IMG/VR virus record: IMGVR_UViG_3300037851_000222
Coordinates: 1 to 64,000 of that record
Length of the DNA: 64,000 nt
Origin: a virus
Reading direction: 5' to 3' (one strand)
How positions within the stretch are numbered: position 1 is the stretch's first letter; the number at the start of each line of letters is the position of its first letter. The translations under genes were made by a program, and so were the position numbers. Of this stretch, positions 11,810 to 61,851 are shown piece by piece. The notes beneath the pieces are model-generated. The model did not search any database. It was given only the letters and a program-made list of their open reading frames with translations, and was not told the origin of the DNA.

Positions 11810-12435
11810 GCAATACCCCGTGGTGTAATGGTAGCACAACAGGCTTTGATCCTGTTTGTCTGGGTTCGAGTCCCGGCGGGGTAAGTTCGCACCTCTACCA
11901 AGAGTTGTACGACAAGCACGACTATTGCACGGCCGGCATTGGCATCCAGCACATTGCCGAGTGTGAACAGGCGTTGCGGGCACTCCCTCGCGGCCCGGTG
12001 CTGGAGTTGGGCGCCGGCAAAGGCGAGGTGGCCGATTGGTGCCAATCTAACGGTTTCCAGCCTTACTTGGGCGTCGACTGGGTCGAGTCGAGACACCCGC
12101 GCATCATCGGCGGATTCGACATCACCAAGGGCCTGGGCGAGATCGCCAGCGGTACCTATGACTACGTCTGGTCCTTCGACGTATTGGAGCATCTGAAGCC
12201 GGATGACATCGCGCCGTTGTTCGCGCACTGCTGTCGCATCGCCCGGCGTGGGCAGGTGCATGCCGTCTGGACGTGCAGCGATGTCCGGTTGGGCGTCGAG
12301 TTGCACACCTGCCGGAACCATCAAGATTGGTGGAAGGCACAGGCCATGGCCGCCGGGATCCTGCGCGTCGAGGTGCGCCCGTCCGGTCGCAAGGGAAAGT
12401 TTTGGTTGTTCATGGAGACTGCTCATGTCTGCTGA
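11806..12435 (+). CDS. Class I SAM-dependent methyltransferase whose 5' end contains a tRNA gene in frame
   Basis: ATGA coupling at 11806; VLELGAGKG, GVDW, YDYVWSFDVLEHL. Confidence 0.8.
   Translation: MSNTPWCNGSTTGFDPVCLGSSPGGVSSHLYQELYDKHDYCTAGIGIQHIAECEQALRALPRGPVLELGAGKGEVADWCQSNGFQPYLGVDWVESRHPRIIGGFDITKGLGEIASGTYDYVWSFDVLEHLKPDDIAPLFAHCCRIARRGQVHAVWTCSDVRLGVELHTCRNHQDWWKAQAMAAGILRVEVRPSGRKGKFWLFMETAHVC
11814..11884 (+). tRNA. tRNA-Gln(UUG), no encoded CCA
   Basis: Acceptor TACCCCG/CGGGGTA, D arm GTG-TAATGGTAG-CAC, anticodon arm ACAGG-CT TTG AT-CCTGT, T arm CTGGG-TTCGAGT-CCCGG. Confidence 0.9.
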
Positions 12436-24717: not shown

Positions 24718-25065
24718 TCAGGCGATCTTCAGCTTGCGCAGCAGGGCTTTGCCCGGTTTGGTCAGGAACAGGATGCCGCCAGCCGCCAGGGCCAGGAACC
24801 ACGGCTTCTTGACGGTGTCCATCAGGGCACCCATGCCCGGCAGCATGTCACCCGCAGTGCCTTGGTAGGCCGGCGCGCCGACGTAGCCGCCGATGCCAGG
24901 CATGAAGCCGGTGACGGGGGCCGCCACGACGGCCTGCTTGGTGGCCGAGGCGTTCAGGGGCCGCGGGGCCGGCATCTCCGGGGCACCGGCGGCGCGGGCC
25001 GCTTGGGTGGTCACGGTGGTCGGCATGGGGGTCGTGAAGAAGGCGTCGGCTTGGTTGCCCAGCAT
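24718..25065 (-). CDS. Small protein with C-terminal TM anchor and basic tail
   Basis: AGGAG SD; KKPWFLALAAGGILFLTKPGK. Confidence 0.7.
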   Translation of the reverse strand: MLGNQADAFFTTPMPTTVTTQAARAAGAPEMPAPRPLNASATKQAVVAAPVTGFMPGIGGYVGAPAYQGTAGDMLPGMGALMDTVKKPWFLALAAGGILFLTKPGKALLRKLKIA

Positions 25066-55426: not shown

Positions 55427-55705
55427 ATGCCCGTCAGCAAGTCGCCCTTCATCAAGGGCAAGAAGTACCTCATCCGCACCGTGACGATGTACTGGACCGG
55501 CCAGGTCGTCACGGCCGACGCCCAGTTCATCGTCCTCCAGGACGCCGCTTGGGTCGCGGACTGCGGTCGGTACAGCGAGGCCCTGGAGAAGGGCGTCGAC
55601 GGCCTGCGCGAGGTCGAGGCCATCAAGGGCGAGGCCATCGTCAGCATCGGCGCCATCGTGGACGCCGTCGAGTGGCCGCACGCCCTGCCCCGCGCCACCA
55701 AGTGA
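55427..55705 (+). CDS. DUF6948-like small beta-barrel protein
   Basis: GKKYLIRTVTMYWTG...LQDAAWVADCGRY...AIVDAVEW.H.LP. Confidence 0.7.
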   Translation: MPVSKSPFIKGKKYLIRTVTMYWTGQVVTADAQFIVLQDAAWVADCGRYSEALEKGVDGLREVEAIKGEAIVSIGAIVDAVEWPHALPRATK

Positions 55706-55768
55706 CGCCTCCGGTGAGGGGTGGTGACGCGCCGCCCTGATCCGAAGACGCCACACAAGGAGGTTGAT

Positions 55769-56197
55769 ATGCCCACCGTCACCAAGCGCCGTCAGCTTCT
55801 GGCTCGCCCAGCGTTCCGCACCGCCTGCGACATAGGGTTGCTCAAGCCGCATCGCCTGCCCGATGGCTCGGGGTGCTTCACCGCATCCCTGCCGCTGCCC
55901 AAGACCCACTGGCTCTACAACCCGCCCCGGCGTGACGCGCCGCCGATGACGATGCGGATGGAGGCCGGCGCCATGCGCGCCAAGGTGCAGGAGGCCGTGC
56001 GCCAGGCGGTGCGCTACGGGCTGCGCGCGGCCACGCGCAACGGCCAGGACAAGGACTTCGACCCCGACGCCCTGGAGCAGAACATCATCGTGGGCCTGCT
56101 GGGCTACCACACCGACGACGGCTTGAGCGAGGGCACAAGCGCCAACCCGGCGCCGGTGCCTCCGCTCTGCCGGGTGATCTGGAGGAGGAAGCCGTGA
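55769..56197 (+). CDS. Hypothetical protein
   Basis: AAGGAGG SD. Confidence 0.65.
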   Translation: MPTVTKRRQLLARPAFRTACDIGLLKPHRLPDGSGCFTASLPLPKTHWLYNPPRRDAPPMTMRMEAGAMRAKVQEAVRQAVRYGLRAATRNGQDKDFDPDALEQNIIVGLLGYHTDDGLSEGTSANPAPVPPLCRVIWRRKP

Positions 56198-56433
56198 ACT
56201 TCACTGACAAGGGAGACACCTTCCCATTGAACACCTTGGTCTGGTGCGTCCCCAAGCTGTTTGATGAGAAGCCGAAGATCACACAGATTCTTCAACGAGA
56301 CGGCGGTGAGCGCATCATTACCAACAGTGATTTGGCCTCTGACTACCTGTTCGGTGACGAGATACCGGAGCCGCAGACGGTGGTGCGTCCGAAGCCTACC
56401 TGCCAAGTTAAAATAGTCTGGGGGAAGTCGTGA
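56194..56433 (+). CDS. Hypothetical protein
   Basis: GGAGG SD, GTGA overlap. Confidence 0.55.
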   Translation: MNFTDKGDTFPLNTLVWCVPKLFDEKPKITQILQRDGGERIITNSDLASDYLFGDEIPEPQTVVRPKPTCQVKIVWGKS

Positions 56434-56591
56434 ACGCCTGCATGATCCGCGTCGGCTACGAGAAGTCCCCCACCTCCTGGGTGGATTCGTCCGCCATCTG
56501 GTCGTTCTCCGTCTGCCGGACCAGCCGCAATGGCTGCGCGCCGATGTCGGTCGCCAATGACCGCACCTGCTCACGGAATGGTCGGAAATGA
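56430..56591 (+). CDS. MNAC-leader microprotein 1 (not in ORF track)
   Basis: MNACMIRVGYEKSPTSWVDSSAIWSFSVCRTSRNGCAPMSVANDRTCSRNGRK. Confidence 0.65.
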   Translation: MNACMIRVGYEKSPTSWVDSSAIWSFSVCRTSRNGCAPMSVANDRTCSRNGRK

Positions 56592-56779
56592 ACGCCTGCA
56601 TGAGACGAATCGGTTATGAACGGTCGTGGTCGTGGTCGTGGTCGGGGTCGGGGTCGGGGTCGTGGTCGTGGTCGTGGTCGCGGTCGGGGTCGCGGTCGTG
56701 GTCGCGGTCGTGGTCGTGGTCGTGGTCGTGGTCGGGGTCGGGGTCGCGGTCGTGGTCGGTTTCAAGGAGCAGCGAATGA
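56588..56779 (+). CDS. MNAC-leader microprotein 2, S-[WGR] repeat tail
   Basis: MNACMRRIGYE then TCG-NGG hexamers. Confidence 0.7.
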   Translation: MNACMRRIGYERSWSWSWSGSGSGSWSWSWSRSGSRSWSRSWSWSWSWSGSGSRSWSVSRSSE

Positions 56780-57600
56780 CCATCCACATCATCTACCACA
56801 AGGCCGACCTCGATGGCCGGTGCTCGGCGGCCATCGTCCTGCGGCACGTCGGCGGGCGGGCCACCCTCCACCCGTGGAACTACGGGATGCCGGTGCCCGA
56901 AGGCATCGCCCCTGGTGACGACGTGTGGGTCGTGGACTGCTGTCTGCCCAAGGCGGACATGGTCCGGCTGCACGAGACCTGTCACCTCGTGTGGATCGAC
57001 CACCACAAGACGGCGATAGACGAGTGCGGCGGCCTGGACTGCGAGGGCTTGCGCACGGTTGGCAAGGCTGCCTGCCTGCTGGCATGGGAATGCTGCTACC
57101 CGCTGGAGAAGCCGCCGCCCCTCGTTCGCCACATTGGTCTCTACGACGTGTGGGACCACCGCGACCCCAACACCGTGCCGCTCAACTATGCGATTCTGGC
57201 AGACCAGACGGGTGAGGGGCCGCTGGACGAAACAGTGTTTGTGCTTTGGTACCGTGGCGACATAGAGGTCATGGTCGATAAAGGGTGTGCCATCGAAAAC
57301 TGGATCAACTCGCAGAACCACACCAAGGGCGCCGCCTACTGCTACAAGATCGCCTTCCACGGCCACCGAGGCGTCATCTGCAACGGCGAGGTCCACTGGG
57401 CTAAGGCTTACCTGGACAAGGACACCGTCATCGCCATCAGCTACCTCTACGACCCGAACACCGACGCTTGGCGCTTCAGTCTGCGCAGCGAGAGCGTGGA
57501 CTGCGCCGCCCTGGCGAAGCACTACGGCGGGGGAGGGCACAAGGGCGCGGCCGGGTTTGAGATCAAAGGCGACCTGCCGGCGTGGGTATTCGGCAAATGA
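56776..57600 (+). CDS. DHH/DHHA1 phosphoesterase
   Basis: IYHKADLDG, VVD, WIDHH, YDVW, FSLRS, GGGGHKGAAGF. Confidence 0.9.
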   Translation: MTIHIIYHKADLDGRCSAAIVLRHVGGRATLHPWNYGMPVPEGIAPGDDVWVVDCCLPKADMVRLHETCHLVWIDHHKTAIDECGGLDCEGLRTVGKAACLLAWECCYPLEKPPPLVRHIGLYDVWDHRDPNTVPLNYAILADQTGEGPLDETVFVLWYRGDIEVMVDKGCAIENWINSQNHTKGAAYCYKIAFHGHRGVICNGEVHWAKAYLDKDTVIAISYLYDPNTDAWRFSLRSESVDCAALAKHYGGGGHKGAAGFEIKGDLPAWVFGK

Positions 57601-57782
57601 ACGCCTGCATCAAGCGCCTCGGGTATGAACAGTCGTGGTCGTGGTCGGGGTCGGGGTCGGGGTCGTGGTCGGGGTCGTGGTCGGGGTCGCGGTCGTGGTC
57701 GCGGTCGTGGTCGCGGTCGCGGTCGTGGTCGCGGTCGGGGTCGCGGTCGTGGTCGTGGTCGGTTTCAAGGAGCAGCAAATGA
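57597..57782 (+). CDS. MNAC-leader microprotein 3, S-[WGR] repeat tail
   Basis: MNACIKRLGYE then TCG-NGG hexamers. Confidence 0.7.
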   Translation: MNACIKRLGYEQSWSWSGSGSGSWSGSWSGSRSWSRSWSRSRSWSRSGSRSWSWSVSRSSK

Positions 57783-57934
57783 ACGCCTGCATGCTCCGTC
57801 GAGGCCACGAACGAGTCAGGCACTACTGCTCGTGGGTCAACAACAGGCAATCGTCCAGAGGGGCCTGCGGCCAGCCGTTCATGCGGTCATGCTGGGTCTG
57901 GAAGACCAACTACCATTCAGGAGCGAGCCGATGA
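57779..57934 (+). CDS. MNAC-leader microprotein 4
   Basis: MNACMLRRGHE...; AAGGAG SD. Confidence 0.65.
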   Translation: MNACMLRRGHERVRHYCSWVNNRQSSRGACGQPFMRSCWVWKTNYHSGASR

Positions 57935-58089
57935 ACGCCTGCACGCGCCGCATCGGTTATGAAAGCCCCCGTCGCTCGCGGGCTAAGGGTCGGCTGCGTT
58001 CGGCAGTGTGGGCTAAACTGCATCCAATGTCGAGGTCGTGGGCGAGGTCGTGGGCATGGGCAAGGTCGTTTTCAAGGAAAACCCGATGA
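57931..58089 (+). CDS. MNAC-leader microprotein 5
   Basis: MNACTRRIGYE...SRSWARSWAWARSFSR; AGGAG SD. Confidence 0.65.
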   Translation: MNACTRRIGYESPRRSRAKGRLRSAVWAKLHPMSRSWARSWAWARSFSRKTR

Positions 58090-59228
58090 ACCTGCCCCCT
58101 CCTGCTCAACGTGGCTTCCTCCGCGTCGGTCTGTCCATCGGCAAGGCGGAAGAGTTGCTGAACAACCTCCACCGCTATCAGGTGCAGGACGGCTGGGCAC
58201 TGGTCTACGAGAAATCCGTCGAGCGGCGCGACCCATACATCCGATTGAAGAACAAATACCGGAACAACTGCCCCACCGGCAAGCATCACTGGCTGCCTTA
58301 TCTCATGGTGATCCGCTGGCAGGCCTTCAAGCTGCCGAAGTTCAACATCAACGGCGTCAACATCTATCACTCGTCCTACGACAAGCGCGGGACGTGGGGG
58401 TGGGTGTACTTGGAACAGGTCCGCGAATGGCTGCGACAGGTCCAGGCCGTCCCGCCGGAGGCCCTGCGCTATGCCGGAATAGCGGCCAAGCGCACGGGCA
58501 AGCGGTACACCAACGCCAGAAATGAACTGTTGACCCCCGGGCTGCGGCGGCATTGGTCAAAACCCGGGCGGCATTATTACACCCGAGGGTTTCAAGATGC
58601 GATGAACGAGTGCCTATCACCCCCGGCACCGAAGTTCCCCTACAACGACCTGCATTACTATCAGCGCGGCTGGGTCTCCGGCCAGGTCTACAAAATCCGG
58701 CCCGAAATTATCAACAAAATGCCTGAAAAATGGGACGGGGTTATAGGACGGACGCTGGAACTGCCTGAAAACAAAGCACTTACGGATCATCTGGTGCAAC
58801 GCTTCGGTGATTTTGTCCTAAATGGGGGCCGAAATAGGACAACAATACCTGAACATTTCCGTAAAATTATGGATTTTATTATTAAAAACCCTGACTGCAC
58901 CCAGAACCAAGTCATTGCCGGGGTTGGCGTCACGCGCCGCCCCATCAACGAACACATGAAGCAAATGGAGCAGCAGGGCCTCATCTACAAGGCCGGGTTT
59001 CACATGACTGGGCGAAGGAAAAACACGAAGGAAGCACTATGGCGATTATCATGCTCATCGAGTGCAGCACTCACGGGGCAACCCCCTGGGAGTATGACAT
59101 CATCTGCACCTCCTGCCAACGAGTCTACCCCGGCACCATCGGCTGGCCCGAGCAGTGCGCCTGCGGCGCCGACCTCGTCAACGGATCAGCCATGCCCATC
59201 TGCCACCAGTGCTACACCGACAAAGTGA
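58086..59228 (+). CDS. Protein with C-terminal winged-helix DNA-binding domain
   Basis: IMDFIIKNPDCTQNQVIAGVGVTRRPINEHMKQMEQQGLI. Confidence 0.65.
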   Translation: MNLPPPAQRGFLRVGLSIGKAEELLNNLHRYQVQDGWALVYEKSVERRDPYIRLKNKYRNNCPTGKHHWLPYLMVIRWQAFKLPKFNINGVNIYHSSYDKRGTWGWVYLEQVREWLRQVQAVPPEALRYAGIAAKRTGKRYTNARNELLTPGLRRHWSKPGRHYYTRGFQDAMNECLSPPAPKFPYNDLHYYQRGWVSGQVYKIRPEIINKMPEKWDGVIGRTLELPENKALTDHLVQRFGDFVLNGGRNRTTIPEHFRKIMDFIIKNPDCTQNQVIAGVGVTRRPINEHMKQMEQQGLIYKAGFHMTGRRKNTKEALWRLSCSSSAALTGQPPGSMTSSAPPANESTPAPSAGPSSAPAAPTSSTDQPCPSATSATPTK

Positions 59229-59427: not shown

Positions 59428-59567
59428 CACCCTCCCCCACACCATACAACGAAAGCGCGAGCCAAGAGAGGTTGGTATAAACATGGTTGACCAGCCCCAG
59501 CGATATTGCTCCACCGGCAAGGACTACTGCCCGAACTGCGCCGTTGAGAAGCGCAAGGAGAACAACC

Positions 59568-60554
59568 ATGGGTGAGGAACGCTACATAGATGACCCGATG
59601 GACTGCGCGTTCATCGAAATGAAGCCGCCGAAGGGCTGGCAGGAGGGCAAGAGCGACCGGGAGGCGAACCGGCACCGCGCCCTGGTGCGCGAGGCCGGCA
59701 TCAGGCTCCCCTATGCCAAGAAGGTCGACCACGCCTTGAAAGTCCTCCGCAGCGCATCGCAGCGGGATGGGGTCGTGTGGGCGGTCTCGTATAGCGGCGG
59801 CAAAGACTCGACTGTCGCGTCGTTCCTGGCAGAGAAGGTGATGGGCCGCCTCCCCCACGTCTACGCCGACACCCGGCTGGAGTACGCCGCCACCCGGCGG
59901 ACCATCGCCTCCCGGAAGGGGTGCAGCGGCTGCGACCTGCATATCGCCAGGTCGTCCGTGCCGCCGATCAGCGTCTGGCGTGAGGGGTTGCCGTTATTTT
60001 CCAAAGAAATCGCATCTAAAATCCGGCAGTTTCAGAACACCGGCAACGAGGCGCACCTCAAGAAGGTGCCCGAGAAGTTCCACGCCGGCATCCGCGAGTT
60101 GACCCAGCGCGGCATCCGGGTGAGCGAGAAGTGCTGCGATGTCCTGAAGAAAACCCCCATGCGGGCGATGGACAAGCGGCTCGGTATCACCGGTCATATC
60201 ACCGGCGTCAGGGCTGTCGAGAGCCGGGCGCGGAAGCTCGGCTGGCTGGAGCGCGGCGCGCTCTATTACTCGGCGCGGAACAAGATGTGGCTCTGCCACC
60301 CGCTGATCTACTGGACGGCGGCCGACATCGCCCGGTGCATCCGCGAGAACCACTTGGTGATCGAAACCCCGCCACTGCGCGGGTCTGGCTGCGTGTGCTG
60401 CGCCTTCGGCGCGCATATCGCATCCTCACAGGGTAAAGAGAACGCCATCCAACACCTCTACCGGACCAACCGCAAGATGTGGACGGCCTTCGTGGAAAAC
60501 ACCCGGCTGGCCGAGGCGATGGACGTTCTGGAGATCCCCTGCCGTGAGTCCTGA
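59568..60554 (+). CDS. PAPS-reductase-family (PP-loop) protein
   Basis: VSYSGGKDS, DTRLEY, CCDVLKK, TGVRAVESRAR, PLIYWT, GCVCC. Confidence 0.9.
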   Translation: MGEERYIDDPMDCAFIEMKPPKGWQEGKSDREANRHRALVREAGIRLPYAKKVDHALKVLRSASQRDGVVWAVSYSGGKDSTVASFLAEKVMGRLPHVYADTRLEYAATRRTIASRKGCSGCDLHIARSSVPPISVWREGLPLFSKEIASKIRQFQNTGNEAHLKKVPEKFHAGIRELTQRGIRVSEKCCDVLKKTPMRAMDKRLGITGHITGVRAVESRARKLGWLERGALYYSARNKMWLCHPLIYWTAADIARCIRENHLVIETPPLRGSGCVCCAFGAHIASSQGKENAIQHLYRTNRKMWTAFVENTRLAEAMDVLEIPCRES

Positions 60555-60777: not shown

Positions 60778-61851
60778 ATGCCAGCCCTGACCAACCCCAA
60801 GCCGCCCCCAGAAGGTTTGGAAACGCTCGTCAAGCTGGTCCCGCCTCACCACTACGCGGTTGTGATGGGCGGCCCGCTGTTGTCTCTGTATTTCCGCGAC
60901 AATGACCATTACTTCGGCAACCGTGGCCCGGGTACGGCGACCTGCCGTATGTACCAACTTACCAAACAAGTATCAACACAGAACATCGGGCGCGATGGTT
61001 GGTGTATGAACAACAACTTGAGTATTATTCAACAAGTACATGATGAACAAGCAACCCATTACAGCGACATGGAACTGGGACAGTTGGAACACGGCCTACT
61101 GGCCGACATCCTCAAGGACAAGACCAGAACCAAGAAGTACCACGAGAAGGTCGAACTTGAGCAGGTTGTGGACGGCAAGCTGCATCAAGACATGCCGGAC
61201 CTCCACGCAGAACCACAAGGAGTTCCCATGCTACCGTCGAAGACGAGGGGTGAAGTCATGGCTAACGCCCTTCAACTCACCTTCAACGGCTCCAATATCC
61301 TGTATGGCGGCACCGTCCTGGGCATCTTATCTAAAACCGAGGACGGTTATTTCAACTTCTGGCCCGACAAGGACCGCGACGGCTACTGGCCCGCCCATCT
61401 GCTAATCAGTATTGGCGAGAAGCTGAACGACCTGAACAAGGAGTGGGACGCGCAGGTGAAGCGCGACTTGGCGGCGCTGGAGGCGTTGGACAAGAGCCGG
61501 CGGCCCGCCCTCGACCCCCCAAGCGAGGACAGCCCCGCCACGCGGGCCGGGCTGCTCAAGCTGCACGAGCGCCTGTGCAGCGCGGCTCATGACCTGCTGA
61601 AGTCAAAGAACCAAGACTACGCCGGAGGCGGCGACCCCTACGCCAATTTCCGAGGCTCGGCCACCTTCGGCATCCACCCGATCATCGGCATCCTGTTGAG
61701 GATGCAGGACAAGGCAAAAAGAGTGGAGTCCTTCGCCCTCAAGGGCGAGCTTCAGGTCAAGAGCGAATCCGTGACCGACAGCTTGGTCGACCTGATCAAC
61801 TACTCGGTGCTGATCGCCGGAATGATCGAAGCGGACAGGAAACAAGTCTAA
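60778..61851 (+). CDS. Multidomain protein with C-terminal Nmad1/DUF1599-like domain
   Basis: LKSKNQDYA...ANF...LRMQDKAKR...ESVTDSLVDLINYSV. Confidence 0.75.
   Translation: MPALTNPKPPPEGLETLVKLVPPHHYAVVMGGPLLSLYFRDNDHYFGNRGPGTATCRMYQLTKQVSTQNIGRDGWCMNNNLSIIQQVHDEQATHYSDMELGQLEHGLLADILKDKTRTKKYHEKVELEQVVDGKLHQDMPDLHAEPQGVPMLPSKTRGEVMANALQLTFNGSNILYGGTVLGILSKTEDGYFNFWPDKDRDGYWPAHLLISIGEKLNDLNKEWDAQVKRDLAALEALDKSRRPALDPPSEDSPATRAGLLKLHERLCSAAHDLLKSKNQDYAGGGDPYANFRGSATFGIHPIIGILLRMQDKAKRVESFALKGELQVKSESVTDSLVDLINYSVLIAGMIEADRKQV

Follow-up and report, generated by a model that had tools for sequence, protein, structure and literature searches.

The microprotein array and its layout

We describe five microprotein genes in an uncultured freshwater phage represented by IMG/VR virus record IMGVR_UViG_3300037851_000222 (94,993 bases, ~63% complete), whose first 64 kb, hereafter the window, were analysed. 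The genes form an array on the + strand and encode strongly basic peptides that share a short N-terminal head (leader) and carry Ser-rich tails. Sequence comparison with related loci identifies the locus as an expanded, detached version of a widespread phage gene pair, in which a peptide of this kind is encoded next to a small partner protein with a predicted Sm-like fold; the window holds one partner gene, two peptides with intact repeats and three with decayed tails. The features concerned, in window coordinates, are as follows.

55427-55705, + strand: partner gene with predicted Sm/LSm fold, 92 amino acids (aa); motifs YLIRTVT, AAWVAD.GR and EVE; ends LPRATK
55751-56197, + strand: open reading frame (ORF) of 148 aa, no known family, between the partner gene and the array; its stop overlaps the next start (GTGA)
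56194-56433, + strand: ORF of 79 aa, no known family; its stop overlaps the GTG start of copy 1
56430-56591, + strand: copy 1, 53 aa, GTG start; leader (V/M)NACMIRVGYE; tail rich in S, C and R, non-repetitive; isoelectric point (pI) 9.6
56588-56779, + strand: copy 2, 63 aa; leader MNACMRRIGYE followed by 23 TCG-NGG units (array 56622-56759); pI 11.8
56776-57600, + strand: DHH/DHHA1 phosphoesterase, 274 aa, between copies 2 and 3 (phrog_4771, E 3e-40)
57597-57782, + strand: copy 3, 61 aa; leader MNACIKRLGYE followed by 22 TCG-NGG units (array 57631-57762); pI 12.0
57779-57934, + strand: copy 4, 51 aa; leader MNACMLRRGHE; tail rich in R, C and W, non-repetitive; pI 10.8
57931-58089, + strand: copy 5, 52 aa; leader MNACTRRIGYE; decayed array remnant at 58027-58068, SRSWARSWAWARS; net charge +14
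58086-59228, + strand: winged-helix protein, 380 aa, next gene of the coupled chain, with an internal copy of the junction motif at 58588-58609

An initial annotation of this DNA, made from its letters and a list of ORFs, had proposed five translationally coupled ORFs with a constant leader, tails ranging from pure Ser dipeptide repeats to fully diverged S/R/W/C-rich sequence, and a DHH phosphoesterase lodged between copies 2 and 3. Each of these elements was recovered. The five ORFs begin where proposed, with the leaders as quoted and lengths of 53, 63, 61, 51 and 52 aa, and every one starts with the exact sequence (A/G)TGAACGCCTGCA. The 12-mer TGAACGCCTGCA has five exact occurrences in the window, solely at these starts, and no additional exact occurrence in the remainder of the whole 95-kb record; allowing up to two mismatches gives 28 window matches, a count reached by 0 of 100 shuffles. 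From 56194 to 58086, each gene start overlaps the preceding stop as ATGA or GTGA, consistent with the proposed coupling, and the 3' end of copy 2 carries the Shine-Dalgarno sequence AAGGAG for the DHH gene. The assignment of the latter to phrog_4771 bears out the phosphoesterase call.

All five copies contain the head M-N-A-[A/C/T]-x-x-[R/K/H]-x-G-[Y/F/H/L]-[E/D], and all are strongly basic (pI 9.6-12.0, net charge +5 to +14). A Ser-[W/R/G] tail is found in copies 2 and 3 and as a remnant in copy 5, and is absent from copies 1 and 4, whose S/R/W/C-rich tails are non-repetitive. Copies 2 and 3 contain 23 and 22 GGTCGN hexamers, respectively, in which N alone varies (T, G or C, never A) and specifies Ser-[Trp/Gly/Arg]; the two copies are 89% identical over 167 nt and thus form direct repeats flanking the DHH gene. 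Partner and peptide genes occupy the same strand, and the coupled chain runs from 56194 onward; the start within ~60 nt of the partner stop, as seen in related loci, is not found here (two ORFs separate the partner stop at 55705 from the copy 1 start at 56430). On this gene order, the module of the window is present but detached from its partner. The five ORFs are real microprotein genes, and their translation is predicted.

Reading frame, relatives and turnover of the Ser-X arrays

Taken alone, the repeat arrays of the window are frame-ambiguous. In the MNAC frame, the variable N of GGTCGN is the first base of the second codon of the unit (the x codon) and yields Ser-[W/G/R]; in the +1 frame it is the wobble base of a CGN Arg codon, and (Arg-Gly)n follows an internal ATGAAC start in copies 2, 3 and 5; and in the +2 frame, which the downstream gene shares, it is the second base of a codon and the product would be Val-[V/G/A]. 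The wobble pattern favours the Arg-Gly frame and codon likelihood favours the +2 Val frame, while in copy 1 codon likelihood is highest in the annotated frame. The five leaders differ at codons 7, 9, 10 and 11 (R, G, Y/H and E) in third positions only, which fixes MNAC as the reading frame of the head.

For the tails, the frame is settled by comparison with 70 related arrays. Their dominant Ser codon is TCG in 36 arrays, AGC in 14, TCT in 10, TCA in 8 and AGT in 2, and each array is 98% homogeneous in this respect; 87% of units have NGG as their x codon (R 36%, G 28%, W 27%). The other two frames differ from array to array, reading RG, QG/HG or AG in one and VV, VR or EQ in the other, so Ser-[W/R/G] is the sole frame conserved across these relatives. 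Passage between TCN and AGY by single substitutions leads through a non-Ser codon, yet Ser is kept, which places the constraint on the protein. Conservation of Ser-[W/R/G] across Ser-codon types therefore refutes both a poly-(Arg-Gly) product and a purely nucleic-acid role for the arrays. The frame proposed by the initial annotation is thus upheld, and conservation of a DNA motif with broken frames in relatives, which it had named among the outcomes that would overturn its proposal, did not occur: Ser codons change and the frame stays.

The poly-(Arg-Gly) reading deserves mention as the alternative that the window by itself would suggest. It holds that translation begins at the ATG within G-Y-E and proceeds in the +1 frame, Ser-X being an off-frame artefact, and it draws on the sole variable base of the window hexamer falling at the Arg wobble position and on the ATGAAC start in copies 2, 3 and 5. 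It is almost certainly wrong, as the same frame encodes QG/HG, AG or VG in relatives, the +1 ORFs lack a proper end and continue into the DHH gene and copies 4 and 5, and this virus disfavours the codons CGT and GGT. The +2 poly-Val reading was likewise rejected, not being conserved across relatives. We note that gene callers often take the upstream array in the Val-rich -1 frame, fused to the next gene, and that such calls have left false poly-Val/Gly/Ala N-terminal extensions in public protein sets (five examples were recorded; the corresponding calls in the window span 56626-57600 and 57635-57934).

Searched with a profile of the five peptides, 5.8 billion proteins gave three look-alikes, and a HMMER pass over 1.84 billion representative proteins gave 15 matches at E < 1e-3. 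Pfam, PHROGs and NCBIfam returned low-complexity noise only, with no family match. A DNA pattern specific to the window had one chance match only in viral contigs, whereas a degenerate pattern of the head matched nine viral contigs, 9/9 of them true family members. The usual family head is M-N-A-[A/C]-x-x-[R/K]-x-G-[Y/F/H]-[E/D], and the commonest type, R.G[FY][DE], was found at 36 of 63 loci. Cys at position 4 is an unusual trait of the window heads. Decayed tails are not confined to the window and recur at three other loci. From these sequences, the peptides are a widespread phage family that is undescribed in databases and the searchable literature.

The arrays appear to evolve by turnover of whole units. 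Among their Arg and Gly codons, synonymous third-base variants account for ~6%, much the same frequency as non-synonymous second-base variants, yet first bases are fully scrambled. Each array thus looks regenerated from one unit, which accounts for the single Ser codon per array. We infer that the arrays turn over like minisatellites while selection maintains their composition and not the order of residues; the W/R/G mixture would be restored through first-base changes of NGG, whose four options encode W, R, R or G. A diversity-generating retroelement was considered and is unlikely: Arg is reached via A or C in a given array, not via all four bases, and N is never A in the window (a reverse transcriptase was not searched for).

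In metagenomes, one freshwater run, which probably represents the source sample, covers 97% of the region, with breaks in its Logan contigs at each of the two arrays (window 56651-56744 and 57661-57751); runs from permafrost, peat, soil, wastewater and sediment have only array words in common with it. Similarly, ~14 viral contigs end 50-320 nt past the partner stop, within the array, and in some long contigs (~40 kb) the break puts the module at the contig end. Arrays of this type thus break up short-read assemblies in a systematic way. RNA libraries from wastewater and sediment include contigs, with a high summed depth, that carry the head and array of relatives; one encodes ...QAVLRAGFD and continues in TCG-NGG units. 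These are a hint that relatives are transcribed, although DNA carry-over is possible and the RNA runs cover none of the flanks of the virus described here.

The Sm-like partner and its genomic context

A typical partner protein has ~112-115 aa, the motifs YLIRTVT, AAWIAD.GR, EVEPFP and GRGsIID, and a C-terminus of the form LP..K; the shorter window partner (55427-55705) is 40-45% identical to its orthologs. The pairing with the peptides emerged from both sides. Among the loci found through the head pattern, the partner gene lies directly upstream of the peptide gene in 7/8 with upstream sequence. In the reciprocal, partner-side search, 80 viral loci were fetched and the partner motif was recognisable in 74; in 63 of these 74, a Ser-rich repeat ORF begins -3 to +57 nt from the partner stop, and the stop codon of the partner normally overlaps the peptide start in typical loci. 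The same order of partner then peptide was found in 7/8 testable contigs of metagenome-assembled genomes (MAGs). Partner homologs are abundant, exceeding 7,081 at E<=1e-3 among 8,000 scored candidates, and the best 120 all lack a precomputed Pfam domain. Residues Y14, R17, T18, T20, W42, R48, E62, E64 and D79 of the partner are conserved and pocket-like. Some module-bearing contigs (30-47 kb) were binned with MAGs of Phycisphaeraceae, Planctomycetales, Chlorobiota, Elusimicrobiota, Gammaproteobacteria and Bathyarchaeota; they are probably phage contigs carried into bins, and poor evidence of host.

An AlphaFold2 model of the window partner, built with a 124-sequence alignment, reached a mean confidence (pLDDT) of 93.7, and that of a typical ortholog, longer by an N-terminal helix and a linker, reached 90.1. 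In a Foldseek search of the PDB with the window partner, the top 50 rows were all Sm/LSm proteins (E from 3e-3, template modelling (TM) score 0.55-0.60), and in an independent, exhaustive VIA-align search the top 14 rows were again all Sm/LSm (Z 8.0-9.3 over 62-73 residues). These matches assign the model to the Sm fold, a strongly bent five-strand barrel in which an N-terminal helix is usual. At the sequence level, no Pfam LSM or Hfq model matched the partner at E<=1 and no PDB sequence matched it; the GRGsIID stretch of the family recalls the Sm2 motif, by eye only. On the predicted structure, the partner has an Sm-like fold and stands outside every named family.

The initial annotation had called this gene DUF6948-like and suggested examining whether DUF6948 and DHH genes co-occur with the peptides. 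The gene is indeed present and is the conserved partner, and any likeness to DUF6948 would be one of predicted fold only. The hidden Markov model (HMM) of PF22253 (DUF6948; gathering threshold 27 bits) had no match at E<=10 for the window partner, none at E<=1 for four orthologs, and nothing over the whole 95-kb record. In structural searches, DUF6948 proteins stood at ranks 9, 12, 17 and 40 in BFVD (E 4e-3 to 5e-2, TM 0.6), and in the ESM Atlas, where the nearest clusters are unnamed and viral-only, a DUF6948 cluster appeared at TM 0.64 with a feature score of 0.87. From these models, the partner may be a distant DUF6948 relative.

Co-occurrence with the barrel gene was thus borne out and co-occurrence with the DHH gene was not. 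Ser-X peptides were found in 0/80 loci of DHH relatives (<=37% identity), and DHH is absent among the module neighbours tallied, so the DHH gene is a local passenger in the window. The recurrent neighbours assigned to PHROGs comprise exonucleases, Erf/RecT annealing proteins, DNA polymerase and helicase upstream of the module (69 neighbours), and DNA methyltransferases and terminase downstream (44 neighbours). GenBank phages contain no DNA relative of the region, and a protein relative of the partner is present in 1 of 50,697 records.

Further features of the window lie outside the gene pair. The 380-aa winged helix-turn-helix (wHTH) protein that closes the coupled chain (58086-59228) has no relatives in viral contigs. 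Within its ORF, positions 58588-58609 hold a copy of the array-end/start junction, GGTTTCAAGATGCGATGAACGAGTGC (compare the junction of copies 3 and 4, GGTTTCAAGGAGCAGCAAATGAACGCCTGC), which reads ...GFQDAMNEC... in frame; it could be a relic of a sixth copy, or else mark where the winged-helix part truly begins. A PAPS-reductase-like gene (59487-60554; phrog_424, E 2e-26) and a gene with a weak match to DUF1599, 'nucleotide modification associated' (60778-61851), suggest a DNA-modification block beside the array. The virus record also carries genes for tRNA-Gln(TTG) and tRNA-Ala(GGC) (window 11814-11884 and 24934-25012), and Rfam together with promoter and terminator scans gave nothing informative.

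Possible functions and comparison with known systems

By analogy with other low-complexity tails, our leading interpretation, to which we give a probability of roughly one in three, is that the peptides are basic, disordered, nucleic-acid-binding tails working with the Sm-like partner in phage DNA or RNA metabolism. The peptide would associate with the Sm-like protein, perhaps by its conserved head, and the tail, with Trp and Arg as 'stickers' and Ser and Gly as 'spacers', would bind nucleic acid or build multivalent assemblies. The initial annotation had likewise seen in the leader a putative docking tag for the barrel and in the tail a possible decoy, nucleic-acid binder, or condensate- or amyloid-forming peptide; of these, the decoy, condensate and amyloid roles are speculative. 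A more specific and speculative form of this proposal is a split Sm system, in which heads dock on an Sm-like ring that displays six or seven tails and nucleates a nucleic-acid condensate, such as a replication or recombination compartment. Array length and the W/R/G ratio could then tune the material properties of the condensate, and multi-copy arrays could supply different tails for one ring; we consider this version unlikely as it stands.

Several observations weigh against the proposal that tail and Sm-like partner act together on nucleic acids. Strict adjacency is lost in the window, where the partner lies 725 nt upstream of copy 1 with two unrelated ORFs between, and the window partner has no N-terminal helix and carries S73 and I74 where the GRG motif of >90% of partner homologs has a nearly invariant Gly-Arg. 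The repeat is lost in three of the five window tails. The head is not universal in the family, being of other or shorter kinds at 21 of 63 loci, and its GNINT/NINT variant (6 loci) is confined to one partner clade; this may reflect co-inheritance rather than co-evolution, as the variant possibly arose once and the comparison has no statistical power. No fused partner-plus-Ser-X protein was found among the longer partner homologs, which have N-terminal extensions only. Finally, a Z of 8-9 on a small modelled barrel indicates shared fold, not shared function.

Two alternatives would assign the pair to the contest between phage and host, and both seem to us improbable, to a similar degree. In one, the Trp/Arg peptides are membrane-active or toxic, serving host takeover, superinfection exclusion or lysis timing, and the Sm-like barrel is their chaperone, neutraliser or immunity protein. 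Their W and R content and pI of up to 12 resemble those of cationic Trp/Arg antimicrobial peptides, toxin-neutraliser pairs are typically coupled in translation as tightly as the peptide and its small partner, and copy number differs between phages; yet the module sits among replication and recombination genes rather than lysis cassettes, the peptides have no hydrophobic or signal segment, and any amphipathic character is diluted by Ser at half of the residues and Gly at about a quarter of x positions. In the other, a Sm-like oligomer, polycationic peptides, or both, act as a counter-defence sponge or decoy that sequesters a signalling nucleotide, guide RNA or effector. Anti-defence proteins are commonly small, restricted to phages and prone to oligomerise, with conserved pocket-like residues; the module occurs very widely among uncultured phages, and variable copy number with fast-evolving tails would fit an arms race. 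The neighbours, however, include no recurrent defence or anti-defence genes, tail composition is conserved without directed diversification, and no structural match to known sponges was found.

The remaining alternatives are considerably less probable. That the arrays act mainly as nucleic acid, whether as recombination hot spots, packaging or binding sites, or translation-tuning RNA, with the peptides incidental, would account for every array ending in the Shine-Dalgarno region of the next gene, GGTTTCAAGGAG, for the direct repeats of copies 2 and 3 around the DHH gene, for the nearly constant NGG form of the x codon and for the breakage of assemblies within arrays. We regard it as very unlikely, since the hexamer itself varies by array (TCGNGG, TCANGG, TCTNGG, AGCNGG and AGTNGG) while Ser and the frame relative to the head are kept, head residues persist through synonymous changes, and Rfam gave no match. 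Marginally more remote still is a precursor resembling those of ribosomally synthesized and post-translationally modified peptides (RiPPs), with a short leader recognised by the barrel and a Ser/Trp-rich core modified by an enzyme encoded elsewhere. A constant head followed by variable tandem cores does recall multi-precursor RiPP loci, and Cys and Ser are abundant in copies 1 and 4, but the 69 upstream and 44 downstream neighbours comprise DNA-metabolism genes only and no recurrent maturase-type enzyme, the leader has just 11 residues, and the barrel matches Sm/LSm rather than PqqD-like recognition folds. The rest of the probability falls to functions that none of these readings foresees.

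Neither the peptide nor the partner gene is represented in Pfam, PHROGs, NCBIfam or PDB sequences or described in the searchable literature, even though the partner has thousands of metagenome homologs. A very common gene pair has thus been missing from the searched family databases and papers, because the partner is nearly absent from GenBank phages and the peptide genes are mostly missed or misframed by gene finders. The peptides represent an extreme natural case of conserved composition without conserved order, paired with an ancient RNA-binding fold, and their role, once known, could reveal a new phage way of organising nucleic-acid transactions or of disarming hosts. To this the window adds a five-copy array detached from its partner, intact and decayed tails side by side, and near-identical copies bracketing an unrelated DHH gene. 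There are also practical consequences: short-read assemblies are broken by the arrays, and trypsin would leave only 2-4-mers of the peptides, too short for detection.

Among known systems, DUF6948 (PF22253) is likewise a small phage beta-barrel whose predicted fold may be similar, but its HMM is matched neither by the partner nor anywhere in the 95-kb record. The eukaryotic Sm/LSm proteins SmD1, SmD3, SmB and LSm4 carry Arg-Gly low-complexity tails on the same chain as the Sm fold. The phage pair resembles them in combining a predicted Sm-fold barrel with a basic, dipeptide-periodic, putatively disordered segment in a nucleic-acid-handling setting. In contrast to them, the phage tail is a separate, translationally coupled polypeptide built of Ser-[W/R/G] rather than Arg-Gly, and the phage partner has no sequence-level Sm match, its window copy also lacking the Arg of GRG. 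A second parallel is offered by dipeptide-repeat and RS/RGG low-complexity regions, such as the RS domains of SR proteins and the C9orf72 dipeptide repeats, with which the phage tails share hexanucleotide-encoded periodicity, conservation of composition rather than order, and richness in Arg. Unlike these, the phage peptides are 50-130 aa long, combine a conserved head with abundant Trp, and are predicted to be products of normal genes rather than of repeat expansion.

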